A DNA stretch of 24,664 nucleotides from an uncultured virus (IMG/VR IMGVR_UViG_3300020558_000001). Lineage: Duplodnaviria > Heunggongvirae > Uroviricota > Caudoviricetes. The stretch lies in IMG/VR virus record IMGVR_UViG_3300020558_000001, one strand, 5' to 3'. This document shows, in pieces, positions 851 to 24,664 of this stretch. A model generated the notes under the pieces. That model was not told the DNA's origin. It did not search any database and was given only the letters and a program-made list of their open reading frames with translations. Every line of letters starts with the position of its first letter. Within the stretch, counting starts at the first letter, position 1. The position numbers and the translations under genes are program-made.

Positions 851-1807
851 ATGTATGGCTATCATGAACAACTCACAATCGAAGAAATATTTTTGAAAGT
901 AAATCAAAAAGAAATCTTTACTCATGTTTTTGGTAAGTTTCAAGTAGGAGAGTACTTAGTATCTCCATTTAGAAATGATGATAGTCCAGGATGTTGGATT
1001 CAATGGCATAATGGAAAGTTATACTTTACTGATTTTGGTTCATATCATGCTAATTTAGACATGATTGGCATTATTCAGCTAAAGTATAATTTTTCATTTA
1101 AAGAAGCCTTAGACTTTGTTGCTAATTTTAAATGTGATGAGGAACCTGAATATATACAGCAGGCAATTACAGTATCAAAATCCAATTCTTTATGTTTGGA
1201 ATTTTGTCCTAAGCTATTTGATGATTATCATAAAACATATTGGTCACAATATGAGATAACATCTAAACAACTAATTCAAGATAACATATTTGCAACCAAA
1301 TGGTATAAAGTTAATGAGCATTATTTTTTTCCTAATGCAGCAGATACTACTTATACAATATCATTTGTTACTGATGCTAAAATCAAAATTTGTAATCCTA
1401 AATATTCCAGAAAAGGTAAATGGGTTACAAATGCAAATCAAAATGTTATTGGTGGAACATCACAATTACCATTTTTAGGTGAAACTCTTTATATCACTAA
1501 GTCTTATAAGGATTGGAGAGTACTCAAAAACATAGGAATAGAATCTGTTATATATTTTCAGAATGAGGGTATGTTACCTGATATGAACATACTTAGTATT
1601 TATTTAAATGCATTTTCAGATGTTATTATTTTATTTGATAATGATGAGCCTGGTATTAATGCATCTAAAAAAGTTCAAGAATATATTAATGGTGAATTTT
1701 CCAACAAAGCATCTTATTTAACACTTCCTACTAAGGAAAAAGACCCTGCTGATATTATTAAAGCAGGTAATAAATTACAATTAACTAATTTTTTAAATTT
1801 AAAGTAA
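851..1807 (+). CDS. DNA primase (DnaG-like, TOPRIM)
   Basis: Degenerate Zn-finger-like N-terminus (SPFRNDDSPGC...FTDFG), TOPRIM-like YITKSYKD, DxD motif LFDNDEPG and KDPAD. Confidence 0.85.
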   Translation: MYGYHEQLTIEEIFLKVNQKEIFTHVFGKFQVGEYLVSPFRNDDSPGCWIQWHNGKLYFTDFGSYHANLDMIGIIQLKYNFSFKEALDFVANFKCDEEPEYIQQAITVSKSNSLCLEFCPKLFDDYHKTYWSQYEITSKQLIQDNIFATKWYKVNEHYFFPNAADTTYTISFVTDAKIKICNPKYSRKGKWVTNANQNVIGGTSQLPFLGETLYITKSYKDWRVLKNIGIESVIYFQNEGMLPDMNILSIYLNAFSDVIILFDNDEPGINASKKVQEYINGEFSNKASYLTLPTKEKDPADIIKAGNKLQLTNFLNLK

Positions 1808-2451
1808 TGAGAAAAGTAAAAGTTTATTCAACAGCTTTTGGTTTAAAAGCTATTAATTCTGCAGCAACAACTTGGGGTGAACTTCAAGATGATTTATCTA
1901 CTGCCAATGTTACATTTGGTAATATGAATGCTGTAGAAAATGTAGGTAATACTACACTTGTATTGAAAGAAGCAAAATTACCTGATGGTGAGTTTGTACT
2001 TATGTTGACTCCACAAAAGACTAAGTCTGGCTCTGATTATAAAATAGTTAGAGCTACTGTTGTAGAAATTATTACTAAATATGGTGTTTCTGCAAAGGAA
2101 CACTTTAATCGTGATGGTAGAAACTATACTAATAGAAATACAGCAGAGCTTTTGGGGTTAATTGCATTATGGAATGAAAAGCATCCTAAATCTGCTACTC
2201 CTGATGTAAAAATTTCAGGAATTGTTACTCCTAAACTTGAAGTAAGTACTCCAGCTCCTAAACCAGTAGTAGAAAAAATGAGTTTTGTAGAAGTTTTAAG
2301 ACTTGTACTTACTTATGATGAAATAAATGAGTATGAAGATTTAGAATCTTATATTCAAGATGCTATTGATATATTAAGAAATGACTCATCATCTGTAGAA
2401 GGTTTATCAGAAGAAGAAAAATCTTGGATTAACAAGATTAAAAATATGTAG
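1807..2451 (+). CDS. Putative ubiquitin-like (beta-grasp) protein precursor with C-terminal extension
   Basis: Residues 1-75 follow a beta-beta-alpha-beta pattern (RKVKVYST / KAINS / TTWGELQDDL ... LPDGEFVLMLTP) and end in QKTKSG75; directly upstream of E2-, JAB- and E1-like genes; TAATG overlap with primase. Confidence 0.7.
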   Translation: MRKVKVYSTAFGLKAINSAATTWGELQDDLSTANVTFGNMNAVENVGNTTLVLKEAKLPDGEFVLMLTPQKTKSGSDYKIVRATVVEIITKYGVSAKEHFNRDGRNYTNRNTAELLGLIALWNEKHPKSATPDVKISGIVTPKLEVSTPAPKPVVEKMSFVEVLRLVLTYDEINEYEDLESYIQDAIDILRNDSSSVEGLSEEEKSWINKIKNM

Positions 2452-2469: not shown

Positions 2470-2504
2470 AGAGGGTTGGGAGAAATCTTAACCCTCTTTT
2501 TTTT
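2470..2504 (+). terminator. Rho-independent terminator
   Basis: AGAGGGTTGGGA-GAAA-TCTTAACCCTCT hairpin (two G.U pairs) followed by a T run. Confidence 0.85.
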
Positions 2505-2523
2505 CACTTAAAATCACAAAACT

Positions 2524-3723
2524 ATGATAAATATATTTCATTTGTTGAGGATAGCAGCTAAAAAACAAGTTAAAAATCAAAGTATAAAGCATATTGAAGA
2601 ACATATTAGTAAAAGGTTTTATGTAAAAAATGGTGAATTAACTGTATTACAACAAAGGTCACACATATTGTTTACTAAAACATTTCCATTTTATAAATCT
2701 TTAAAACAAGCACTTGATAATTTTGGATTAGATTATGAAATTAGTTTAGGATATCATATAAAAACATTTAATCATAGCCCAGTTGATTACTATTATGCTC
2801 ATAATAATCTTTGTTATACTTGTACATCTGAAAAATTAGATTATTCAACTCAATTTATTCCTAAACTAAATGTTATAATTCATTTTCCTAAAGTAACATT
2901 AACTAATAGAGATAATAAGTATCACACAATCAAGAATTTATTTGTAAAGTTTAGTGTTAATATTTATCATAAAATAGATATGTTAGAAGGTACAAGAACT
3001 ACATTTCATCCTATTGAACATCAAAAAAGATATAGACATTCTCATTTAAATGCAAGTAGTGATATATCATTTAGTTATTTTTGTTTAGGTTCTGATGCTC
3101 CAATATCATTTACTAAAATACTACTTGAAGAAGAATTAACTAAACCTAATACAAGTTGGACTGATACATTTTTATTCTTTTTAAATCAGATTAAAGCTTA
3201 TTTAGTTTATGAATCATTAGAGGGTGGGCCATACATTAAGATTTCTTCTTTAACTTCTTCTAACTATACTATAGAGGATAAAATAGGTGCTCTACAATTA
3301 GACAGAACTTATAATTCAATAGCTAATGCATTTAATGCATTTTATCGTATGCAAATATTTCATTTCTTAAAACAAGGTAATTTATTATTTGCTAACAAAG
3401 TACTTGATGTTAAAAGAGAAGTATTTGATAGAGTAGTATTTAATGAAGATTTTTTAAATTCTTCTGCTTTTGATAATTATTTTAAAGCTAACTACATTGA
3501 ATACACTTATAATAATCTACCTGTAAGTTTTGAATCAGTATTAAACAATACAGAAGTATTATTAGATGAATATGTATTGTTTCAAGGTAAGAAGATATAT
3601 GGTTTAATTAAACCTGAAACTAATTTTGATAACCCTGACGAATTAAAAATTAACGTCAAACAAATTGTAAAAAATTATGTCTATAACAAATTTAGGTCAG
3701 AAATCAGCTCATATCAGATATGA
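2524..3723 (+). CDS. Putative E2-like (UBC-fold) conjugating enzyme
   Basis: YRHSHL (172-175) followed by FCLG (Cys187) resembles the E2 HPN(I/V)...ICL active site; preceded by HFPKV and followed by an amphipathic helix FLFFLNQIKAYL and ESLEGGPY; lies between Ubl and JAB genes. Confidence 0.6.
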   Translation: MINIFHLLRIAAKKQVKNQSIKHIEEHISKRFYVKNGELTVLQQRSHILFTKTFPFYKSLKQALDNFGLDYEISLGYHIKTFNHSPVDYYYAHNNLCYTCTSEKLDYSTQFIPKLNVIIHFPKVTLTNRDNKYHTIKNLFVKFSVNIYHKIDMLEGTRTTFHPIEHQKRYRHSHLNASSDISFSYFCLGSDAPISFTKILLEEELTKPNTSWTDTFLFFLNQIKAYLVYESLEGGPYIKISSLTSSNYTIEDKIGALQLDRTYNSIANAFNAFYRMQIFHFLKQGNLLFANKVLDVKREVFDRVVFNEDFLNSSAFDNYFKANYIEYTYNNLPVSFESVLNNTEVLLDEYVLFQGKKIYGLIKPETNFDNPDELKINVKQIVKNYVYNKFRSEISSYQI

Positions 3724-4768
3724 GAACATTACATTGAAAGGTGAGCCAGTAGTACATCTTTCATCTACAGTATGGGATAAAATAAAGTATTTATGTAAAA
3801 ACATCAATACAGTAGAATGGAGTGGCTCTATTTTCTATAGATTCATATCTGATAATCCTACATTATCTGATGTAACTACATTAGATATTGAAGTAGTAGA
3901 TATTATTCCATTAGATAAGGGTACTTCAGGATTTACTGAATACAATTTTGATTCAAGAGTTGTAAGTTACATGACTGAAATGGATTATTTTGATTTAAAA
4001 ATAGGTCATTGTCATTCTCATCATGAGATGAAAACATTCTTTTCAGGTACAGATATGTCAGAATTAAATGATAACTCTGAATTTATCAAACCTTATCTAT
4101 CTCTCATTGTAAATAATCATCATACATTTTCATGTAAACTTGCATTTAGAGTAGAAGCTGAACCAGTTCTTTACAAGTATCAAGATGTAAATGGTAATTG
4201 GCAAGCAATGATGTCAAAAACAGATGATGCTATTAAAGTAGCTTCTTATGACTGTGTTGTAGCTCCACCTAAAGTTCCATTAATTGTAAGTAGTAAATTC
4301 TTAGAACAGTTTGAACAGATTATGAAACCTAAGCCACAAACTGCAAAGGTTAAATATAAAATGGAACAAACAAGTTTGTTTGAAGATACTTTTGATTGGA
4401 ATAATGGTTTAAAAAGTCCTGTTATTATGAATGATGAGGAATCAGATGATAATCCTACACTCAGAGAATTAGAATTGATGTCTTGTTGTATTTTAAGATT
4501 AGGTCAAAAGATGGATAATGATTCAATAGAAATTACATTAGAAGATATTGAAAATTCTATCAATCAAAGACAAATGAATCTTGAAAAGTATGTTAAACAA
4601 ATTGGTAATAACATTAAAAGATACATTTCTCAATACTGGGAAACAGATATAACTGATGAAGAATTAGAAATGTTTACAGGAGATTTTATTGATGAGCTTA
4701 TTTTCTTACAAGATGAGTTTCCATTTGTACAAGACATTATTTTAGAATTTGATAAATCAATACTATAA
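3677..4768 (+). CDS. JAB/MPN+ (JAMM) metallopeptidase
   Basis: Complete JAMM motif E47...H113-S-H115-x7-S123-x2-D126 (VEWSG...GHCHSHHEMKTFFSGTD); acidic helical C-terminal domain. Confidence 0.9.
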   Translation: MSITNLGQKSAHIRYENITLKGEPVVHLSSTVWDKIKYLCKNINTVEWSGSIFYRFISDNPTLSDVTTLDIEVVDIIPLDKGTSGFTEYNFDSRVVSYMTEMDYFDLKIGHCHSHHEMKTFFSGTDMSELNDNSEFIKPYLSLIVNNHHTFSCKLAFRVEAEPVLYKYQDVNGNWQAMMSKTDDAIKVASYDCVVAPPKVPLIVSSKFLEQFEQIMKPKPQTAKVKYKMEQTSLFEDTFDWNNGLKSPVIMNDEESDDNPTLRELELMSCCILRLGQKMDNDSIEITLEDIENSINQRQMNLEKYVKQIGNNIKRYISQYWETDITDEELEMFTGDFIDELIFLQDEFPFVQDIILEFDKSIL

Positions 4769-4771
4769 ATT

Positions 4772-5494
4772 ATGAGTAGAGAAAGATTTCAAGATGCTCT
4801 ATGGGTTAATAAACCAGTATCTATCCATGTAGGTGGTGCAGGTGGCATTGGCTCATGGTTTTGTTTTTTTGCTACAAGAGCAGGATTTAGAGTACAAGTC
4901 TATGATTTTGACCGAGTAGAAGAACATAATTTAGGTGGTCAACTATTTCTTACTCAAGACATAGGTAACTTAAAAATAAATGCTCTGTCAAATGTAATCT
5001 CTTTGTTTAATGATGATGATTTTCAGTTTTATCATAAAGATTGGAGAATTGATGAGCATATTTCTTATTTTCCATTTAAGAATTATAATGGTTTAACAAT
5101 TATAGTTAGTGCTTTTGATAATATGAAAGCAAGAACTGATTTGTTTAACATTGCTATAAAATTACATAGTGATGAACAAAAAATATTTTTTGTTGATGGT
5201 AGATTACTTATGGAGCAAATGAGGATATATTGTATTGATATGTCAGATGATTCAAAGGTAGAAGATTATGCATTAAATCATTTATTTGATGATTCAGAAG
5301 TAGAAGAATTACCTTGTAGTATGAAACAAGTATCTCATGGTGCTGCTATGATTGCTACTCACATGTTAGGATTTATTACTAATAAGATTAGTAATGAATT
5401 TGAGTGGAAAGATGAAGTATTTAAAGTACCTTATATCTGGGATTATATTATTCCAATGAATAAAATAACAGAGCAATATGACATCACATCCTGA
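4772..5494 (+). CDS. ThiF/MoeB/E1-family adenylyltransferase (Ubl-activating enzyme)
   Basis: GGAGGIG nucleotide-binding loop, YDFDRVEEHNLGGQ, GNLK, SAFDN, DGR and a candidate catalytic Cys182 (ELPCSMK). Confidence 0.9.
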   Translation: MSRERFQDALWVNKPVSIHVGGAGGIGSWFCFFATRAGFRVQVYDFDRVEEHNLGGQLFLTQDIGNLKINALSNVISLFNDDDFQFYHKDWRIDEHISYFPFKNYNGLTIIVSAFDNMKARTDLFNIAIKLHSDEQKIFFVDGRLLMEQMRIYCIDMSDDSKVEDYALNHLFDDSEVEELPCSMKQVSHGAAMIATHMLGFITNKISNEFEWKDEVFKVPYIWDYIIPMNKITEQYDITS

Positions 5495-8247: not shown

Positions 8248-8907
8248 ATGAAAAACAGAATGTTAGTACTGATAATCTCAATAGTAGTATTGAGTAGCTG
8301 CTCACAAAAAGAATACATAGATGAGCCTGCACAAATAATAACTTGGAATGGTTCAGATACACTTAAAGTGTTTATGAATAATTCTGATGACCCAAATCCA
8401 CAAATACACAATCACAAGTTTAACAACATTACATTTAAACACCCTAAATTTAATTCTAAAGTAGAGGAAGAATATGTAATGAGATTTTATAAAACTGCAC
8501 AACAAGAACATAAACAATTTGGTATTCCAGCATCTATAAAATTAGCACAAGGTTTATTAGAATCAGCATCAGGTACATCTACTTTATCTAAAAAAACTAA
8601 TAATCATTTTGGTATTAAGTGGACATCTAATCATAAAGGTGGTTATGTAGTTGCTAAAGATGATAAACCTAATGATAGATTTAGAAAGTATAAATCTGCA
8701 TGGTTTTCATATCGTGACCATTCTAAGTTTTTAATGATGGATAGGTATAAACCATGTAGAGATTGTGGTAAAGATTATGAATGTTGGGCAAGACAATTAA
8801 AGAAATGTGGATATGCAACAGCACCACATTATGCAGAATCACTTATAGCTATTATTGACAGAAATAAACTTTATAAGTATGACAATGAAGGTAAAATGCA
8901 TCAATGA
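8248..8907 (+). CDS. GH73 (FlgJ-like glucosaminidase) peptidoglycan hydrolase with lipoprotein signal
   Basis: GIPASIKLAQGLLESASG (catalytic Glu), NNHFGIK, FRKY, GYATAPHY; N-terminal hydrophobic stretch with lipobox LSSC (Cys18). Confidence 0.9.
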   Translation: MKNRMLVLIISIVVLSSCSQKEYIDEPAQIITWNGSDTLKVFMNNSDDPNPQIHNHKFNNITFKHPKFNSKVEEEYVMRFYKTAQQEHKQFGIPASIKLAQGLLESASGTSTLSKKTNNHFGIKWTSNHKGGYVVAKDDKPNDRFRKYKSAWFSYRDHSKFLMMDRYKPCRDCGKDYECWARQLKKCGYATAPHYAESLIAIIDRNKLYKYDNEGKMHQ

Positions 8908-15619: not shown

Positions 15620-18600
15620 TCATTTTTTACTATCAGAATCTTTAATGTCTTTAAGTAAAGGAAGTCTTTTATTTACAATTTTGGTAATTTGTTTTTCTGG
15701 TAACCCTTGCTCTTCAAGTTCTTTTTTTAACAATAATCTTTGAGCTTCTAATCTCTTATTAGTCTTTTTAGTATCATCAAAATACCAATCATCATAAGTT
15801 GTTTTTTCAAATTGTCTTTCCATTTGTTTTGAAAATCCAAAATAAGAATCTCTAACTGCTGATGGTAATGCAATTTTATAAAATGCATTTGCTGTTTTAG
15901 AATCACCTGCATTTACACCTCTTGTAATAGTATCATTACCTTCTATCCACTCTTGAGTTGAATTTATAAATTTAACAACATCATTGTAAAACCTTATAGT
16001 TCCTTGTTCTCCAACTAATTGAGTAAATCCATCAGGTGTAAGATACATGTTAGAAGAAGATAATAACTGTAATGACCTATTTACAATTAAGTTATGTGCA
16101 ATTCTTTCAGGTGAATCCTCTTCATCGTCATCATCCCAAAACATTTTTTTAGCAATTAAAGCCATAGCAATCCAAGCAATTTGTAATGACATTTCAGTTA
16201 CTAATGCTCTCATGTTTTTCATATCTCTCTCAGTAAATTTACCTTCACCAAGCTTACCTTCTTTTATAAGTTTTTCATAACCTACAAATTCATTCATTAC
16301 TTGTTTACCTGTAAAGGTACTACCTACAAAATTTACAGGCATACCTATCATCTTTCTTGCTAATGCTTTTAAAAGAAATGCATACTCACCTAAAATACTT
16401 AAGTTACTTCTTACTCCAGTTTTTTTACCAACAAGATGTCCTATTGCAAAACCAGCTGCACCTGTTACAACTGCACCCATTGGTCCAGCAAATCCCCAAC
16501 CTACAATACTTGTCATTATACTTAATGATGATTTAGTATGAGATAAGTATCTACCTTTGTAACCTTTAACTCCTAATTCTGCATCATCTCTTTCTGTTGC
16601 AAATCTTGTATAGTATTGAGCACCTGCCCAAGTTTTAAACATAGTTAATGCTTTACCCAAAGTACTTGATTTAGCCATCATACCTCTAAGGTTATCATAA
16701 CCTAAACCATGTGCCATACCAATAGCTTGAGATGTTTTAGTTTTAAATGAGGTAAACATTTCTCCTTGTCCTTCTTCCCAATTCTTAATGTTTTCTTCAG
16801 TTCTAAAGTTAGGTAATAATCTACCATCCATATCCATTGCATCCCAAGCATTAACTTTCTCTCCATTTAAACCTGTAATCTCAGTACTTAACATTACTGA
16901 AATCATAAGAGGAGTTTGGTTAAGGTATTCTGTTCTTTTATTAATTTCCATTGGGCCTAACTTATCTAAAACATCTAATGAAGTTTTAACAGAGGCCTTT
17001 TGTAATTCATTAGTTGAATCTTGTAGAATATTATATCTGTCAACTAACACTCTAAGTTTTCTTGAACCTTGAGTACTTAGTTTAGTATTACCTGTTATAC
17101 TTTTAAATAATGAACCTTTAACAATATTTAATGCTCTATAATAATGATGTGGTTCAAAGTGGTCACCAGTTGCTGCAATAATCATATTAGCAATTTGACC
17201 TTCCATGTAGTTAGTAATACCTGAAGATAAGTTATAACCTAATCCTAAGTATCTAATGTAGTTAAATAGATTTTCAAATGCTGCACTTGCAGATACTTGT
17301 TTACCTAAACCAGCTTTTATTTTTAATAGTTTATCTATTTCATTTTGGTCTTTAGTATTATTAATTAAATCATTAAGTTGTTTATTTAACTCTCTTTCTT
17401 TCTTGTTTAATATTCTACCTGATATAAGATTACCTATTCTCTCCATTGCTGTTTTAGGGTCAACATTTTGAGAATCAATTACACCAAATGCTTTTACATC
17501 TCTGTTACCAAGTATAACCCTATTAAACCAATCCTCCATTTGAGTATTAGCTCTTGTTCTTACTCCATCTGTTTGAGCTGCTTGAGAAAATATATTAGTA
17601 ACCCCTGCACCTTGTTTGTTAGTTTTTGGTGTTTGTATTTGAGTATAATGATTTTTCATCATCTCCATGTAAGGTAATAACTCTTGTCTTGCTGAATACT
17701 CAGCAGCCATCATGTTATAGTATCTGATTAATTTAGGTAAATCAGTAGAGCTATCCTGAATAATGTCAGCCATTACTGAGTTCTCTAATATCTTACCAAC
17801 AGGTACTCTCTCACCATACTTAGCTTTTATTGCTTCATAAGTTGGGGGAAGATTAGTTTTTTCACTAATTAACTTTATAACACTTTGTGGCAATTTATAT
17901 AAATCAAGAGTACCAGTCTTTTTAACTTTAAGATTAGACCCAGATGACTTCATTAAATTATTAGCCTTAATTAATTCCATTGTCAACAAGTTATCTATTT
18001 TAGATTTATTGTTGGTTAGAAATTCAGCATTTACTGTTGGCTCTACTTTACCTGTAATAACATCTTCATTTTCAAATGATATAGAACTTTGAGGATTTAT
18101 ACCAAACCCACCTTTTATTCTATCATAAAAATCTACTAATGCATTCCATAGTTTTTTATATAATGAAATATTAGGGTCAGCTAACATTTCTCTAAATCCT
18201 TTTCTTGTAGCAGGTAATGAATTTATAAATACTTGGTCTTGTACATCAGCAGGAAATGAGTTTACAATAGTAGTCATTTGCTCTTGTACTATCTTATAGT
18301 ACTCATACAAGTCTTTGTTTTTTTCAATTTGTTCAAATTTCTTATCATAGTAACCTGTTGATTCACCTGATACATTAGCTACATATCTACCTTGTTTATT
18401 TTGAGATACTGATGTTGTCTTATATCTTCTTGGAATACTAATGTTGTATTCCATACTTGTATTTACAAACTTATCTCCTATTTGTACATCACCATAATGA
18501 TAATAATCTGAACCTGTAAATGGACTTTTAGCAGCTTCATTAAATAAAATATCTGATTGTACTTCAGGACTTAACTCTTCAAATGTACTTACTCCATTTT

Positions 18601-21600
18601 CTTCAAATGCCATTTCTCTATTAGACTCTCTCCACAAGAAGTATTTTTTAATTTGCTTAATTTGTTTATCTACTTCTTCTTTATATGCTTGTTCACTTCC
18701 TAAGTTTTCAATAAGTTCTTTTCTGTGAGCATCATCTACAATATCAAAATATTCATCAGCTAAATCAGGAAATGCTTCTCTAATTTCTCTAAGTCTTCTT
18801 ACATCAAATACTACTACATTTTCTCTAAACCACTCTTGTCTTTCCTGATAAGTTTCTTTTAATAGTTTATTTTTTACTTTATCATCTAATCCTGATACTC
18901 TAATAAGTTTTAATTTCTCTTTAAAGTCAGCTTGCATAGATGCTCTTGCATCAAAAAATTCTTGGTTATATCTATTTACAAGTCTACCAGTATTTCTACC
19001 CATTGACTTTTGAAAGAATATATCAAAGGATGCATTGTTACTAAGACCTAGTACAGATAATACTTGACCCATAGCTTTTAATGCTTTCTCAGCTTTAGTA
19101 AGAGCTTTGTTATGTTTTTCTTCAAATGCTTTAGCCTTACTTATTTTTTCAGCAAATATCCTTTGAGTTATATCCATCATTATTTGAGGGATAAGATTAC
19201 TTGAAGATACATTTTTACTTGGGTCCATTATCATCATATCTACCCAACTAATATCATTTGTAGGGTTAGTAAGATGTTTATAAGTAAGTTCTTCTGTATA
19301 TAATTCTTTAATAGTAGGATGACTATTAATTATATTTTCTAATGCTCTTTTTTGTTTTTGGTCTAATTGATTTTCATACCCAGAAAATGCTTTAGATAAG
19401 TTTTCAAAAAAGTCAATAGTTTGTTGAGGTAATTGCATCTTACCATCTGCATCAAATATTTCTTCTTCAAAAAATATAGGATGACTATTAATAGGGTCAT
19501 TATCAAGGGTAACTTTTTTAGCAGTAAAACTCATTGCTTTATAAAAGTTAATAATCCTCTTAGCTTCATTAATGTCATTTACATTTTCTGATTGCAATAA
19601 AGTTTGTAGTCTTTGTAAATCTTGTTGTGCCTGAAACTTTAATTTACCATAACTATATCCTGATTCAGTATCTGCTATATCATTTTCTAACTGGTCTAAT
19701 CTTTCTTGTAATTGATTTTCTTTTCTTGCAAAAGACAATGCTTCCTCTTTTGTTTCAGCATTTTTAATTAAATTTTGAACATTAGCAATTCTATCTTTAA
19801 TCTTAGACTTTAATGACTTTTTATAATTTAGTACTTTATCAAAGTTAGTTATTACTTCATCATCTAATGTATCATCAGTTTCTAATCCAGGCTCTTCTTG
19901 AGTTTGTTTTTGTTCTTGACTTGTTGCATACTCTGCTGCTAAATCATCAAAGTTAAATTCATCATCTACAAACTCATCAACATCTGATTCTTCTTTTGGG
20001 TCAAATGATGTATCTTGAGATGGAATAGATTCATCTTGAGATAATTGAAACATATAATTTCTGTTATCATCAATTTTAAATTTGTTATCAAAATATTTTA
20101 AATTTTGATAATCATAAACATCTTTGTTTCTACCCATAACAAATAATTTAGGTAGATAACTATATTCTGGAGTAGTTAAATTAATATTATATACATCATC
20201 ATGTATAACTTTTACTTGCTTTGGTTCTATAAAAAAGTCAATTAAGATTGTTTCTTTTTGTTCTGCTAAAGATAATGATTCATAAATATCTGATAACCTT
20301 AATCCTTTTTCTTTTCCAACTTTAAATTTTTTATCTATCTCTGGATTAGTTATATAATAATGAAGTGCATTATAGTTCTCACCTTCATGAAACCAATTTG
20401 CAAAATAATTAAGTGAATCTCCATATTCATTTTGTAAATCACTAAATAATTCTGTATTTTCAAATTCTTCTTGAGTTAATTTTCTTGTAATTGGTAACCC
20501 AAATAAATCCTGTGAGTTAAAATATGTATCTATATCATGTAGTAATCCTTCTTTACTTCTTTTTAATTGACTAACTTTTCTTAATGATAATGAACCTGTA
20601 ATGGCTCCATTATTTTTACTAATTAATTGCATTAGCTTTACAGCTTTTCCACCATCTTCTTTATTTTGTTCTTGTATTGTTTCTAAATAATCAGTAGTAG
20701 TAAATCCTTCATCATTATAAATTTTAAAATAATCTAAATTATTATTTAAAACATTACCTGCTATTTCATTAATTAAATCTTTAAACTTAATATTTTTTTC
20801 TAATTTAATTGCATCTTTATAACTTAACCCTAATAGTTGTCTAATTAAATTTACAATTTTTTCTAATAATATTTTTACATCAGTAGGTAACTTTATAAAA
20901 GATTGAGAATTATAATCAATCATTGCCATTGCTAAAGCTTTACCAATAGCTTCTTTTTGAACTTTTTTCCAATCTACATTTCCTTCTGCATCTTTATAAA
21001 TATTACTATACTCATTATAAATAGTTTTATAACCTTCCCAAGCTGAAACAGTTTTAAATAATTGTTGACCAATTTCACTATTTTTGTAATTAGAACCTAA
21101 TAATTCAAAAACGGCATGAGCTATTTCTTCTGGTAGTGTTAAAACATTTCTTTCATCTTTACTTACAACTTTAATAGTTTTATTTATAATGTCAGTTACT
21201 CCTAAGATATTTAAACCAAATTCTTGTTTAAGTTTATTTAAAGTAGTTTCTTCTATATCAAAATGAAATTGTTTTAAAAAATCAATTAATTTTTTTTCTA
21301 ATTTAGGATTGACTTGTTGAGTAAATAATGTATAATATTCATTTTTAAATTTACTATTATATACAGTATTAACTAAATCACTATATGTTTTTATATTCTT
21401 ATTTTTATCTATAACAAATTTTAAATATTGTTTTGCTTTAGTGTTAATTGGTAATTTATCAATATCTGATTTAGTAACATTTTGATTAAAATTTACTTTA
21501 AGTAAAGCTTCTTTTACTTCTTTTGTATAAACAACTGATTGAAGCTCACTATTTTTTTGAAATAAATAATCTTCATCGTATTCTAATCCTGCTCTTTTAG

Positions 21601-21943
21601 CATCTTCAATTTGTTGTTTAAGTGCTTGTTGTTTTGATTCTTGTTTTAATTTTTCTGATTCTGCTTTTTTCATTCTGTAATCATAAGCATTTCTAAGTGC
21701 TTTAGGAACATGAATGTTAATACCTATTCCATCAGAATATGAAGTGTTTAAAGATACTGCTTCACCAAAAACTTTAGAATTATATGCTTTATTAATTTGC
21801 TTAACTTTACTTTGAGCAAGACCATAAGTTTTATTTCTATCTTTTGAATCAGTAAAAGGAATAAATATTTCATTTTCTCTTTTAACAGCAGGTTTAATAC
21901 CTTGCATTAAATCTGATTTTATATTATCTTTTAAGCAATCCAT
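15620..21943 (-). CDS. Giant 2107-aa putative virion/ejection protein with zincin-like and nucleotidyltransferase-like modules
   Basis: Size and position as in crAss-like cargo proteins; EEIAH (272-276), GS450-451...DID470-472...D569, acidic linker, and Gly-rich hydrophobic segments near the C-terminus (IVGWGFAGPMGAVVTGAAGFAIG). Confidence 0.7.
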   Translation of the reverse strand: MDCLKDNIKSDLMQGIKPAVKRENEIFIPFTDSKDRNKTYGLAQSKVKQINKAYNSKVFGEAVSLNTSYSDGIGINIHVPKALRNAYDYRMKKAESEKLKQESKQQALKQQIEDAKRAGLEYDEDYLFQKNSELQSVVYTKEVKEALLKVNFNQNVTKSDIDKLPINTKAKQYLKFVIDKNKNIKTYSDLVNTVYNSKFKNEYYTLFTQQVNPKLEKKLIDFLKQFHFDIEETTLNKLKQEFGLNILGVTDIINKTIKVVSKDERNVLTLPEEIAHAVFELLGSNYKNSEIGQQLFKTVSAWEGYKTIYNEYSNIYKDAEGNVDWKKVQKEAIGKALAMAMIDYNSQSFIKLPTDVKILLEKIVNLIRQLLGLSYKDAIKLEKNIKFKDLINEIAGNVLNNNLDYFKIYNDEGFTTTDYLETIQEQNKEDGGKAVKLMQLISKNNGAITGSLSLRKVSQLKRSKEGLLHDIDTYFNSQDLFGLPITRKLTQEEFENTELFSDLQNEYGDSLNYFANWFHEGENYNALHYYITNPEIDKKFKVGKEKGLRLSDIYESLSLAEQKETILIDFFIEPKQVKVIHDDVYNINLTTPEYSYLPKLFVMGRNKDVYDYQNLKYFDNKFKIDDNRNYMFQLSQDESIPSQDTSFDPKEESDVDEFVDDEFNFDDLAAEYATSQEQKQTQEEPGLETDDTLDDEVITNFDKVLNYKKSLKSKIKDRIANVQNLIKNAETKEEALSFARKENQLQERLDQLENDIADTESGYSYGKLKFQAQQDLQRLQTLLQSENVNDINEAKRIINFYKAMSFTAKKVTLDNDPINSHPIFFEEEIFDADGKMQLPQQTIDFFENLSKAFSGYENQLDQKQKRALENIINSHPTIKELYTEELTYKHLTNPTNDISWVDMMIMDPSKNVSSSNLIPQIMMDITQRIFAEKISKAKAFEEKHNKALTKAEKALKAMGQVLSVLGLSNNASFDIFFQKSMGRNTGRLVNRYNQEFFDARASMQADFKEKLKLIRVSGLDDKVKNKLLKETYQERQEWFRENVVVFDVRRLREIREAFPDLADEYFDIVDDAHRKELIENLGSEQAYKEEVDKQIKQIKKYFLWRESNREMAFEENGVSTFEELSPEVQSDILFNEAAKSPFTGSDYYHYGDVQIGDKFVNTSMEYNISIPRRYKTTSVSQNKQGRYVANVSGESTGYYDKKFEQIEKNKDLYEYYKIVQEQMTTIVNSFPADVQDQVFINSLPATRKGFREMLADPNISLYKKLWNALVDFYDRIKGGFGINPQSSISFENEDVITGKVEPTVNAEFLTNNKSKIDNLLTMELIKANNLMKSSGSNLKVKKTGTLDLYKLPQSVIKLISEKTNLPPTYEAIKAKYGERVPVGKILENSVMADIIQDSSTDLPKLIRYYNMMAAEYSARQELLPYMEMMKNHYTQIQTPKTNKQGAGVTNIFSQAAQTDGVRTRANTQMEDWFNRVILGNRDVKAFGVIDSQNVDPKTAMERIGNLISGRILNKKERELNKQLNDLINNTKDQNEIDKLLKIKAGLGKQVSASAAFENLFNYIRYLGLGYNLSSGITNYMEGQIANMIIAATGDHFEPHHYYRALNIVKGSLFKSITGNTKLSTQGSRKLRVLVDRYNILQDSTNELQKASVKTSLDVLDKLGPMEINKRTEYLNQTPLMISVMLSTEITGLNGEKVNAWDAMDMDGRLLPNFRTEENIKNWEEGQGEMFTSFKTKTSQAIGMAHGLGYDNLRGMMAKSSTLGKALTMFKTWAGAQYYTRFATERDDAELGVKGYKGRYLSHTKSSLSIMTSIVGWGFAGPMGAVVTGAAGFAIGHLVGKKTGVRSNLSILGEYAFLLKALARKMIGMPVNFVGSTFTGKQVMNEFVGYEKLIKEGKLGEGKFTERDMKNMRALVTEMSLQIAWIAMALIAKKMFWDDDDEEDSPERIAHNLIVNRSLQLLSSSNMYLTPDGFTQLVGEQGTIRFYNDVVKFINSTQEWIEGNDTITRGVNAGDSKTANAFYKIALPSAVRDSYFGFSKQMERQFEKTTYDDWYFDDTKKTNKRLEAQRLLLKKELEEQGLPEKQITKIVNKRLPLLKDIKDSDSKK

Positions 21944-21958
21944 TGAGTTTAATTTTAA

Positions 21959-24664
21959 TTATTCACAATTAAGTCTTGGTAAGTTGTTTATATCTTCTTC
22001 AGAAATTTCTTTAGGTTCAAATGACTTACCTCTTGTATCTATATTAAGTCCTTTAGTTGTATATTCTTCACCTACTGATACATTACCTGCATTTTTATTA
22101 GATACAATTACAGCTTTATATCTTGGTCTTGTAACTGCTACATATAAAGATTGGTTTTTAGTTTTAATAGATGCATTTTGTACACCAAGAATATTATCTT
22201 CCATCACATACACATTGTTATAAGTAGAACCTTGTGCATCATGTGATATTGCAGCATAACCATAATCAACATTAACATGTTTATCTTCATTATTCCACCA
22301 CACATCTTCCATAGTTGTACCTCCCATTTTCAATGCACGGACTCTATTATTATTTTGTATGTCACTATATTTTTCTTTAACTTTAGGAGATAACACTTGT
22401 ATTGTAATTATTTGTCCAGTTTCATTTTGAACTTTAAGAGTATAACCAGGTAAAGATTTATTTGAAATTGAATAATCTTCACTTATTTCTTTAACACTTA
22501 TAGTTAAAGGTGTAAAACTTAATACACTATATTGTTCTCCATTAAATACATCTTGACTTGTTGCACTTGATTGTTCTTTGTTATCATTGTTAATAAGAAT
22601 TTCTCCTTTATTAAACTCATTAGTATTGCCTTTACCCCAAAGAATTTCTCTTGCAAGATTATTCATACTATTTTTTTCAGCATGAGTAAATGTAATAATC
22701 TTAGTATTTTCTTTATCATTTTGTAAGTCATTAGTAAGTTGAGTTACCATTGAATCTTTAGTTTCAAACAAGATACCTGTATTTTTCTTAGCATCAAATT
22801 TATTTGTTCTATTTTTTATAGGTCTAAGTTCAGGCTCTTTACTTTCTACATTTGCTGCAATTACATCACTTAATGATACAATAGGTGAATCTTCTCCTTG
22901 ACGCATTCTTTCTGTAAGAGTAGCAGTATATTCAGGTTTAGTATTAGCAGTAAATGATGCAGAATCTTTATTTTGTAAATTTTTATCTGCTTCCATAGGA
23001 GGTAATTGTACATTATCTCCCATAAAGATAATTTTTACATTTGGATTTTTAGAGAAATTAATAATATCATTTACCATTTCTTGAGTAAGCATTGAGCATT
23101 CATCAATAATAATTACATCAGCATTATAAAATGGAGATTTAGTTTTATTAAAGTATTTACTATCAACTTTTATAAATTGACCAGGATTTTTACGGTCAGG
23201 TCTTATACCTATTGCAGATGCAATTGTACCTGCTTTTACTTTTGAACCCATAGAACTTTGAAGTACACCTTTAGCTTTATGACCTAAAGTAGCTGCTGCA
23301 ATTTCTTTACCTTCAAGTTTTTCTAATATCTTTTTAATGATAGTAGTTTTACCTGTACCACCTCTACCTTTAAGTACAAATACTTGTCTTCCTTTATCTT
23401 TAACAAAATTATTAAGTTTTTCTATTGCTTTAGTTTGACCTGCATTAGCAGGTACTCCAGGAAATAACATTATATCATTACCTGCTTTTGATTCACTAAT
23501 CATTTCTTCTGTTTCTGCAATTTCATTTTCAATATCTGCTATAGTACTATCACTCATTCCAAATTCTATTTGAGATTCTGTTGGTTCAATTTCAACTTCC
23601 TCTTCTTGAATAGCTTCTAATAATTCATTCATATCAGTAGCACCTGTTTCATTTAACAATGCTTCTATATATTCTTGATGTGCAGCAAAGAATTTTAATT
23701 GATTATCAGTAATAGATGCTTCATTTAAAAAGTTAATAATTTTAGGATAACCATTAAACTCTGACATATTAATTTCATCAGGGTAAGTTACTGCATCTGG
23801 ATTACTATTAAACTCTGCATTTTCTCTAACAATAAGTTGAGATAAATTAGTTTTAACTTTACTATATACTTCTTGATTTAAATCTATTTGAGTAGTAGGT
23901 GTAAACAAATCTAATATCTCTTTTTGAGTAACTCTTGAACCAGTATTTACATTTAAAACCTTATTATCTATTTGTACATATTCTTGTTTATTAAATACTT
24001 TAGTTTCAAAGTTATTAGCTTTAGCATAAGCTGCTAATACTTTATTGATTTGAGTTTCATTAGTTTCTATTTTATCACCAGATTTAGCATTATGGATAAC
24101 TTCACCTGTACTTGGATTATAAGTATAAGTAAATTGGTCTACTTTAGTAGTAAATGATTTTTCAGATGTAGTACTAGGTTGAGTAACATTAACTTTATTT
24201 GGAGTTTTAGGCATACCTGGTTCTAAATCCATAACTCTTCTTAATGTAATAGATATTCTATAAGAACCTTTAGGAAAAGTTTTTTTAACATTATCATTAT
24301 CAATAGTTAATTCAGGAAGAAATCCTTTTACTGATGAAGCAAATGTTCTATGGTAAACCTCCCTATTTTTACCATCAACTCCAAATACATAAGCATCACC
24401 TGCATTTAGAAGTTTATCTTCATAAACTTTAGATGAATAATTATTAGACTTTTTAGCACCTTCAACACTAAAGTTACCAGAACCTCCAATATTAACAACA
24501 AGTACAGGATAACCAATAGCTGTAACAGATTCATCTACATCATTATGTGCAGAGATAAAAGTTTTATCATCATATAAATTAATGATAGCACCATCATAAT
24601 TAGTTGCATCAATACCTGTAGCTTTACTAATTAAATCTTTTATTCTTTGGTCTATTGGTCCTAA
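21959..24664 (-). CDS. C-terminal part of a large multidomain protein: AlkB-like 2OG-Fe(II) oxygenase plus SF1B (Dda/RecD-like) helicase; 5' end outside window
   Basis: No stop in frame from 24233 to 24664 (144 extra codons). Helicase motifs GRGGTGKT, IIIDECSM, GDNVQLPP, LTERMRQ, YAAISHDAQGSTY and LYVAVTRP. AlkB-like AIINLY...SAHNDVDE...YHRT...RISITLR. Confidence 0.85.
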   Translation of the reverse strand, partial: LGPIDQRIKDLISKATGIDATNYDGAIINLYDDKTFISAHNDVDESVTAIGYPVLVVNIGGSGNFSVEGAKKSNNYSSKVYEDKLLNAGDAYVFGVDGKNREVYHRTFASSVKGFLPELTIDNDNVKKTFPKGSYRISITLRRVMDLEPGMPKTPNKVNVTQPSTTSEKSFTTKVDQFTYTYNPSTGEVIHNAKSGDKIETNETQINKVLAAYAKANNFETKVFNKQEYVQIDNKVLNVNTGSRVTQKEILDLFTPTTQIDLNQEVYSKVKTNLSQLIVRENAEFNSNPDAVTYPDEINMSEFNGYPKIINFLNEASITDNQLKFFAAHQEYIEALLNETGATDMNELLEAIQEEEVEIEPTESQIEFGMSDSTIADIENEIAETEEMISESKAGNDIMLFPGVPANAGQTKAIEKLNNFVKDKGRQVFVLKGRGGTGKTTIIKKILEKLEGKEIAAATLGHKAKGVLQSSMGSKVKAGTIASAIGIRPDRKNPGQFIKVDSKYFNKTKSPFYNADVIIIDECSMLTQEMVNDIINFSKNPNVKIIFMGDNVQLPPMEADKNLQNKDSASFTANTKPEYTATLTERMRQGEDSPIVSLSDVIAANVESKEPELRPIKNRTNKFDAKKNTGILFETKDSMVTQLTNDLQNDKENTKIITFTHAEKNSMNNLAREILWGKGNTNEFNKGEILINNDNKEQSSATSQDVFNGEQYSVLSFTPLTISVKEISEDYSISNKSLPGYTLKVQNETGQIITIQVLSPKVKEKYSDIQNNNRVRALKMGGTTMEDVWWNNEDKHVNVDYGYAAISHDAQGSTYNNVYVMEDNILGVQNASIKTKNQSLYVAVTRPRYKAVIVSNKNAGNVSVGEEYTTKGLNIDTRGKSFEPKEISEEDINNLPRLNCE

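Follow-up and report, generated by a model that had tools for sequence, protein, structure and literature searches.

A predicted ubiquitin-like modifier precursor with an invariant glycine at its candidate processing site in a phage-encoded gene cassette

Introduction

Conjugation of ubiquitin-like (Ubl) proteins in bacteria has so far been associated with host defence, as in the Bil and type II CBASS systems, or with plasmids and conjugative elements. Here we analyse a phage gene that may belong to a pathway of the same kind, located at positions 1807..2451 (plus strand) of a 24,664-nucleotide stretch of DNA from an uncultured member of the Caudoviricetes (IMG/VR record IMGVR_UViG_3300020558_000001; the whole stretch is referred to below as the window). 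The gene encodes a 214-residue protein with a Ubl-like domain ending at Gly75 and a long C-terminal extension, and is followed by genes for an E2-like protein, a JAB peptidase and a ThiF-type E1 adenylating enzyme.

The closest described system is Bil. According to the accessible text of one account, the Ubl protein BilA carries a glycine that is universally conserved and has as many as nine residues after it, the JAB peptidase BilC cuts BilA at G97|A98, even within a BilA-GFP fusion, and conjugates form solely from Ubl truncated at that glycine (PMC10557695). A second report describes, in its accessible part, twelve BilA homologs with overhangs of 2-9 residues (10.1101/2023.09.04.556158). The cassette in the window is predicted to encode the same four kinds of protein, in an order that the names A-D also follow (BilA Ubl, BilB E2, BilC JAB, BilD E1). 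However, PADLOC finds no BilA, BilB or BilC in the window and matches the E1 to BilD at only 0.029; the E1 is a 240-residue ThiF-type protein, and the cassette lies in a phage replication module rather than in a bacterial defence island. In addition, residues follow the glycine in every relative that we examined, up to 267 of them, whereas the accessible text on Bil gives nine at most.

A second comparator is operon class 6d, for which the accessible text of Iyer, Burroughs & Aravind (2006) describes a standalone small Ubl with a conserved C-terminal glycine, an E2-like protein with a conserved cysteine, a JAB and an E1-like protein, encoded as separate genes on mobile elements (PMC1779556). 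The window shares this set of separate genes with class 6d and the related PRTRC models (TIGR03735, TIGR03736), and shows weak matches to PRTRC_ThiF (2.4e-10) and PRTRC_A (0.057). These matches nevertheless reach only 40.2 bits against 144.75 for PRTRC_ThiF and 13 bits against 101.8 for PRTRC_A; among the window's genes neither an alpha-helical partner protein nor a ParB-like gene was recognised, and the Ubl has no match to Prok_Ub. Because the sequence models of both Bil and PRTRC failed, the cassette would appear to work like these systems but not to be a member of either.

Among phages, the TAPI protein of lambda joins a Ubl domain through a linker to a C-terminal domain, and a cut at the last glycine of that Ubl by the neighbouring JAB protein, TAPK, has been predicted, as far as the accessible text goes (PMC1779556). 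The likeness lies in a phage Ubl fused through a linker to a C-terminal domain; the differences are that TAPI belongs to a tail-assembly module, is accompanied by neither E1 nor E2, and has no sequence relationship that we could find to the protein described here. In eukaryotes, ubiquitin-ribosomal-protein precursors carry the modifier N-terminally, joined to a folded protein to which it is not related, and release it when a deubiquitinase cuts after its terminal glycine. Their cargo is different, their modifier ends in Gly-Gly and they are confined here to an analogy of design.

Drawing on sequence conservation, modelled structure and analogy with these systems, we consider it about 70% probable that the protein in the window is cut after Gly75 by the neighbouring JAB and then activated. 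In the proposed pathway, the 214-residue protein would be the precursor of a phage-encoded modifier, with residues 1-75 as the Ubl and residues 76-214 as an extension blocking the Gly75 carboxylate. The JAB, encoded two genes downstream, would cut the G75|S76 bond, the ThiF-type E1 would then adenylate the freed Gly75, and the Ubl would probably be handed to Cys187 of the E2-like protein and from there to a target protein. An E1 adenylates a free C-terminal glycine carboxylate and cannot use an internal glycine, so with Gly75 inside the chain a cut at G75|S76 would have to come first. What the window and its relatives display is a Ubl fold, an invariant glycine with a break in conservation after it, variable tails, a fixed cassette and intact catalytic motifs.

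Materials and Methods

At E ≤ 1e-3, a profile search with the Ubl protein returned 2174 representatives (at 50% identity); the number fell to 1337 at 1e-10 and to 170 at 1e-30. An alignment of 193 proteins was assembled from 48 relatives obtained in a first search and 145 that were new among the 150 best profile matches. A scan of viral contigs provided 76 loci, from which the run-off open reading frames (ORFs) of L022, L034 and L075 were dropped to leave 51 distinct Ubl proteins. Short forms were sought in a separate profile search, which returned 199 proteins of 41-146 residues at E ≤ 1e-5; the best 120 of these were analysed.

Hidden Markov models (HMMs) of the neighbouring proteins were iterated over every ORF of the window, of two GenBank loci and of the 76 viral loci. 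HMMs of the two parts of the extension (residues 76-128, helical; residues 155-214, C-terminal) were used to search all 79 sources translated in six frames. The AlphaFold2 model of the Ubl precursor was built on a 24-sequence alignment and had a mean predicted local distance difference test score (pLDDT) of 75.6.

Results

The precursor and its fold

The Ubl precursor gene is open throughout (214 codons and a stop) and matches phrog_15560 at 4.9e-13, its sole family match and one with no annotated function; searches of Pfam, NCBIfam and PADLOC at E ≤ 0.1 returned no curated Ubl family (Prok_Ub, ThiS, ubiquitin or PRTRC protein C). Residues 1-75 (1807..2031, plus strand) were modelled as a ubiquitin-like domain, in which strands 2-8, 12-18, 40-44 and 63-69 and helix 23-32 follow the beta-grasp order. 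With Foldseek, the first 76-83 columns aligned to MoaD, NEDD8, SUMO and ubiquitin (TM-score by target 0.55-0.66, root-mean-square deviation (rmsd) about 3 Å). VIA-align placed residues 2-74/75 of the model on residues 1-76 of ubiquitin (1ubq: Z 7.3, rmsd 2.6, 70 residues aligned; also 5zq5_B), so that Gly75 would occupy the place of ubiquitin's last glycine. Z scores for the domain ranged from 7.3 to 8.0, and values below 8 are middling for this tool; given this, we base the predicted fold on the whole list of matches being beta-grasp proteins, taken together with the sequence evidence.

The domain closes with the motif T72-K73-S74-G75 (2020..2031, plus strand). Codon 2029-2031 is ggc and specifies Gly75, in the context ...FVLMLTPQKTKSG|SDYKIVRA..., and the predicted scissile bond lies 3' of this codon. 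Model pLDDT drops to values under 50 for precisely residues 73-75.

Three segments follow, all on the plus strand. The first is a helical domain (residues 76-125, 2032..2181) with conserved Y78, R82, F100, N106, T108 and L115, modelled together with the end of the motif as helices 74-92, 94-100 and 112-125. The second is a proline-rich linker (residues 126-157, 2182..2277) with six prolines in 32 residues, gap-rich and variable alignment columns and predicted disorder (pLDDT below 50) at 129-154. The third is an acidic helical tail (residues 158-214, 2278..2448) containing 14 Asp or Glu against 5 Lys or Arg, modelled as helices 160-167, 171-175, 179-192 and 202-213 and finishing in a conserved amphipathic helix (...EE.SWINK.KN). 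The initial annotation, made from the sequence alone, had proposed a Ubl-like domain ending in KSG at Gly75, followed by a helical domain, a proline-rich linker and an acidic helical tail; the ORF, the codon and the beta-grasp model bear out the first part, and the model and amino acid composition the second.

An invariant glycine and a break after it

Glycine occupies position 75 in 193 of 193 aligned proteins, and this is the only column with complete invariance. The positions leading up to it are nearly as constant (K73 in 187, T72 in 178, P69 in 172 and S74 in 169 of the 193). The same glycine is found in all 51 distinct Ubl proteins from viral loci and in 119 of the 120 short-form relatives (the best 120 of 199). 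Conservation then stops abruptly: column entropy is 0-0.6 bits at positions 72-75 and rises to 2.9 bits at 76 and 2.5 bits at 77, both of which also carry insertions and deletions, and in the first alignment of relatives the glycine is separated from the next conserved position by inserts of 2 to about 8 residues. An alignment of homologs had been put forward at the outset as the check on the proposed cleavage site, with an invariant KSG-like motif and a fall in conservation directly after it as the expected pattern, and this is what the alignment contains. Given 193 glycines in 193 proteins, the TKSG75 pattern is, as far as an alignment can tell, not chance.

Beyond position 77 conservation resumes at Y78, R82, F100 (170), N106 (181), T108 (190/192) and L115, which indicates from the alignment that the helical domain is under clear constraint within its subfamily. 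In the acidic tail, 157 of about 190 proteins share L200 and 122 share E203.

Tails of many lengths and kinds

The length of chain after the glycine varies widely. None of the 51 viral-locus proteins ends at the glycine itself; 13 continue for 1-3 residues, three for 21-23, ten for 56-116 and 25 for at least 118, the shortest tail being a single residue and the longest 267. Short tails include KSG-K, KSG-R, KSG-F, KSG-I, KSG-LN and KSG-TSI. Within the best 120 of the 199 short-form relatives, the 119 that have the glycine carry one residue after it in 46 cases, 2-6 residues in 34 and 10-63 residues in 39, again with no protein ending exactly at the glycine. A search for shorter natural forms with the window protein brought up just fragments and frameshifted pieces. 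In all 363 relatives that keep the glycine, it is internal to the chain.

The extensions are of unrelated kinds, with a single short helix in some and an acidic segment in others. When 21 diverse extensions were searched against Pfam, no family passed the cut-off and none recurred, a profile search of the window's extension against the PDB gave MatP at E 0.11 as its only match, and an Atlas search with residues 76-214 gave nothing usable. A by-eye impression of a SAP/HeH-like motif in the extension found no support and was dropped.

One tail stands apart in composition. At L044:5574-5987 (plus strand), the 62 residues past KSG are rich in lysine, alanine and proline and resemble histone H1 (Pfam HC2 at 1.2e-4, below the cut-off); from its sequence, this protein would be a Ubl with a likely DNA-binding tail.

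The helical domain of the window type was detected in 45 of the 79 sources, always fused behind the beta-grasp domain. None of the 79 sources has a separate gene for the extension, with one marginal exception, a match of the C-terminal HMM at 1.5e-4 in loci of the FpV4 type. The search thus gave no evidence of a split gene: apart from that marginal match, the HMMs of both parts hit behind the beta-grasp domain only.

Since the same cassette carries tails of 1 to 267 residues elsewhere, the core pathway would not need the extension. Judged across the relatives, the extension is a swappable module, which in the lineage of the window probably contributes to regulation or localisation or yields a second product.

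These tails also bear on another way of reading the protein, as an uncut two-domain UBL-domain adaptor in which Gly75 serves as a hinge, while the E1, the E2-like protein and the JAB act on a different substrate, such as the C-terminus of some other protein of phage or host, in the manner of Cap2 in CBASS. Such an adaptor would suit a helical domain that is well conserved directly after Gly75 and always fused to the Ubl, and a model in which a helix starts at residue 74. However, 13 of the 51 viral-locus relatives and 80 of the 119 short-form relatives (among the best 120 of 199) consist essentially of the beta-grasp domain plus 1-6 residues, and because these short forms sit in the same cassette, the fused domain would lie outside the conserved function. 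The glycine is, moreover, invariant regardless of the sequence that follows; the C-termini of the long forms are unconserved and are not glycine, and no other cassette protein of the window ends in glycine. We therefore consider an uncut adaptor unlikely.

A fixed cassette beside a phage primase

The gene neighbourhood is constant. In every source long enough to judge, the primase, the Ubl, the 399-residue E2-like protein, the JAB and the E1 are encoded in one order on one strand. Where a source extends at least 3.6 kb past the Ubl stop codon, the E2-like, JAB and E1 genes lie downstream in that order (52 of 52); where it extends at least 3.5 kb upstream, a primase gene is present on that side in 68 of 69 cases. 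The order is the same for short and long forms of the Ubl, and each locus has only one beta-grasp gene. In the window, the preceding gene (851..1807, plus strand) encodes a Toprim DNA primase (phrog_12622 at 6e-47; Pfam Toprim_2 at 1.6e-4).

The cassette is present in, among others, Flavobacterium phage FpV4 and the crAss-like gut phage cr128_1. In the annotation of FpV4 the module is hypothetical except for the E1, which is named 'thiamine biosynthesis protein'; in cr128_1 the JAB homolog is annotated 'contains metalloprotease domain'.

Between the Ubl and E2-like genes of the window lies a terminator-like hairpin with a 12-bp stem followed by T8 (2470..2505, plus strand; -17.9 kcal/mol, z -2.8). 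Of 47 distinct loci (L004-L078), 38 have a hairpin and T-run behind the Ubl gene, with stems of differing sequence; by the same crude criteria, one follows the primase gene in 6/46, the E2-like gene in 1/43, the JAB gene in 5/43 and the E1 gene in 1/39. Placed after the Ubl gene, the hairpin would allow the modifier to be expressed above its enzymes, and its recurrence across loci suggests a high ratio of Ubl to enzyme.

The cassette enzymes

The predicted processing enzyme, a JAB/JAMM metallopeptidase, is encoded at 3677..4768 (plus strand) and recognised by its JAMM motif. Residues H113-x-H115-x7-S123-x2-D126 are invariant in 31 of 31 relatives and E47 is kept in at least 90%, so that the two residues singled out earlier for mutation of the enzyme, E47 and H113, do fall on conserved catalytic positions. 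Among the relatives, 23 of 31 match Pfam Prok-JAB at E ≤ 0.05, the best at 3.6e-5. The reading frames of the E2-like protein and the JAB overlap by 47 nt (3677-3723), an overlap that in relatives reaches about 180 nt when the first start codon is taken; the true start of the JAB may lie further downstream.

The E1 (4772..5494, plus strand; 240 residues) is an adenylating enzyme of the ThiF/MoeB type that passes the Pfam ThiF model (1.2e-14; 54.5 bits against a cut-off of 28.1). Its residues G22-x-G24-G25-x-G27, D45, D47, N53, Q57, K68, D116 and R121 are present in 41-44 of 45 relatives and C182 in 40 of 45. In NCBIfam it matches ThiF (3.2e-17) and PRTRC_ThiF (2.4e-10), neither reaching the cut-off.

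The 399-residue protein (2524..3723, plus strand) has no family in Pfam, PADLOC or NCBIfam, and Pfam searches of 33 relatives likewise gave no E2 family; an Atlas search offered a weak lead toward Prok-E2_D. We assign it as E2-like (UBC-fold), with an extra C-terminal domain, at moderate confidence on the strength of its AlphaFold2 model (pLDDT 73.3) and VIA-align, in whose wide search the top 50 were mostly E2, UEV and RWD chains, including bacterial BubB, at Z 5-6.5. N128, H174, C187, G189, E230, S231, G234 and P236 are invariant in 33 of 33 relatives. The model has two helices, a four-stranded meander, a loop bearing H174 and C187 (from strand 155-161 to helix 193-204) and further helices; from this order of secondary structure, rather than from a superposition, the position of C187 would correspond to an E2 active site. 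For residues from about 252 to 399, structural comparison brought up weak matches (Z 5.0-5.4), namely the N-terminal domains of MCM proteins and the C-terminal domain of T4 RNA ligase 2. According to these matches the C-terminal part may be a nucleic-acid-binding add-on, which would fit a setting in a replication module.

The enzymes could also serve a different end, with the protein cut at Gly75 and the Ubl acting as a sulfur carrier like ThiS or MoaD, its Gly75 thiocarboxylate being used for thio-modification of a cofactor, tRNA or DNA. The Foldseek matches include MoaD and the sulfur carrier TtuB, the E1 is a minimal ThiF-type protein with ThiF as its best NCBIfam match, and JAB peptidases do serve sulfur-carrier pathways (e.g. 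CysO/Mec+ and QbsE/QbsD). Against this, the cassette includes an E2-like protein with an invariant cysteine in 52 of 52 cases, and no rhodanese, cysteine desulfurase or sulfurtransferase came up when the window's ORFs were scanned against Pfam and PHROG. Classical sulfur carriers, moreover, end in Gly-Gly, whereas the tail of this Ubl is Ser-Gly. A sulfur carrier seems to us quite unlikely.

JAB enzymes act as isopeptidases in many systems and nothing ties this one to the G75|S76 bond in particular, so its role might be confined to removing Ubl from targets, with the cut at or near Gly75 made by another host or phage protease or by the precursor itself. This is very improbable, as the JAB is the sole peptidase recognised in the cassette and accompanies an always-extended Ubl in 52 of 52 sources, and the cognate JAB of Bil performs both tasks, as stated in the accessible text (PMC10557695).

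Other features of the window

The rest of the window is phage DNA, with genes for a RusA-like resolvase, a PD-(D/E)XK exonuclease, an endolysin, a dUTPase and a Dda-like helicase and an ORF of 2107 residues. The endolysin-like protein (8248-8907, plus strand; phrog_3513 at 1.7e-34) has an N-terminus, MKNRMLVLIISIVVLSSCS, that resembles a lipoprotein signal with a lipobox cysteine. The 2107-residue ORF (15620-21943, minus strand) has no PHROG match at 1e-5 and adjoins the Dda-like helicase (21959-24232). crAss-like phages typically encode giant proteins of this sort.

Discussion

The case for cleavage at G75|S76 followed by activation combines the position of the glycine with the constancy of its neighbours. 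The glycine lies inside the chain in all relatives and the enzymes are under selection whatever tail the Ubl carries; on the simplest reading, a cut would precede the action of the E1 and would be made by the cassette's own peptidase. From this combination we infer the cut itself, the identity of its protease, the subsequent conjugation and the existence of a target.

Several observations weigh against this interpretation. In one relative, P0234, serine replaces the glycine (KVKSS-NKN) in a protein otherwise like that of L070 (KVKSG-NKN); the substitution could reflect an error in sequencing or a variant that is inactive. The strong conservation of the helical domain (T108 in 190/192), and the fact that it never occurs as a separate gene, would fit a protein that stays uncut, and the model helix that begins at residue 74 may leave the scissile bond less exposed than in ubiquitin. 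On the enzyme side, the JAB of the window scores 16.6 bits against the Prok-JAB cut-off of 25 in Pfam, and a profile of it matches no solved peptidase by sequence. The E2 assignment relies on Z scores of 5-6.5, which are middling, while Foldseek returned no match for that protein at E ≤ 1e-3 and Pfam none at all.

The fragment comprising residues 76-214 may act after release, may serve only to block or tether the Ubl before release, or may do both.

A literature search, with subscription journals mostly outside its coverage, turned up no description of this phage cassette. Relative to the systems outlined above, three features of it are new, namely a fixed place within the replication module of a phage, a Ubl made obligately as a precursor, and natural extensions that are large and swappable. 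A broader proposal, which we offer tentatively as possible rather than probable, is that crAss-like phages and related phages of Flavobacteriia carry, as a constant component of the replication module, a full Ubl conjugation machine of their own (Ubl, E2-like protein, JAB and E1), in which the Ubl is always made as a blocked precursor and which modifies phage or host proteins in replication or counter-defence; in lineages like that of the window, the blocking group would have become a folded, conserved cargo released by the JAB. If true, this would be a viral, prokaryotic counterpart of the ubiquitin-ribosomal-protein fusions of eukaryotes.

Conclusions

The four-gene block beside the primase spans a very large group of phages, as judged from the 2174 representatives of its Ubl at 50% identity. 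The precursor form and the swappable tails offer one defined bond, G75|S76, as an experimental handle, and the natural fusions of Ubl with cargo are material for studies of how JAB enzymes recognise their substrates. If the Ubl is indeed cut and conjugated, these phages would run a ubiquitin-like pathway of their own, and its targets in phage or host would represent a new layer of phage biology.

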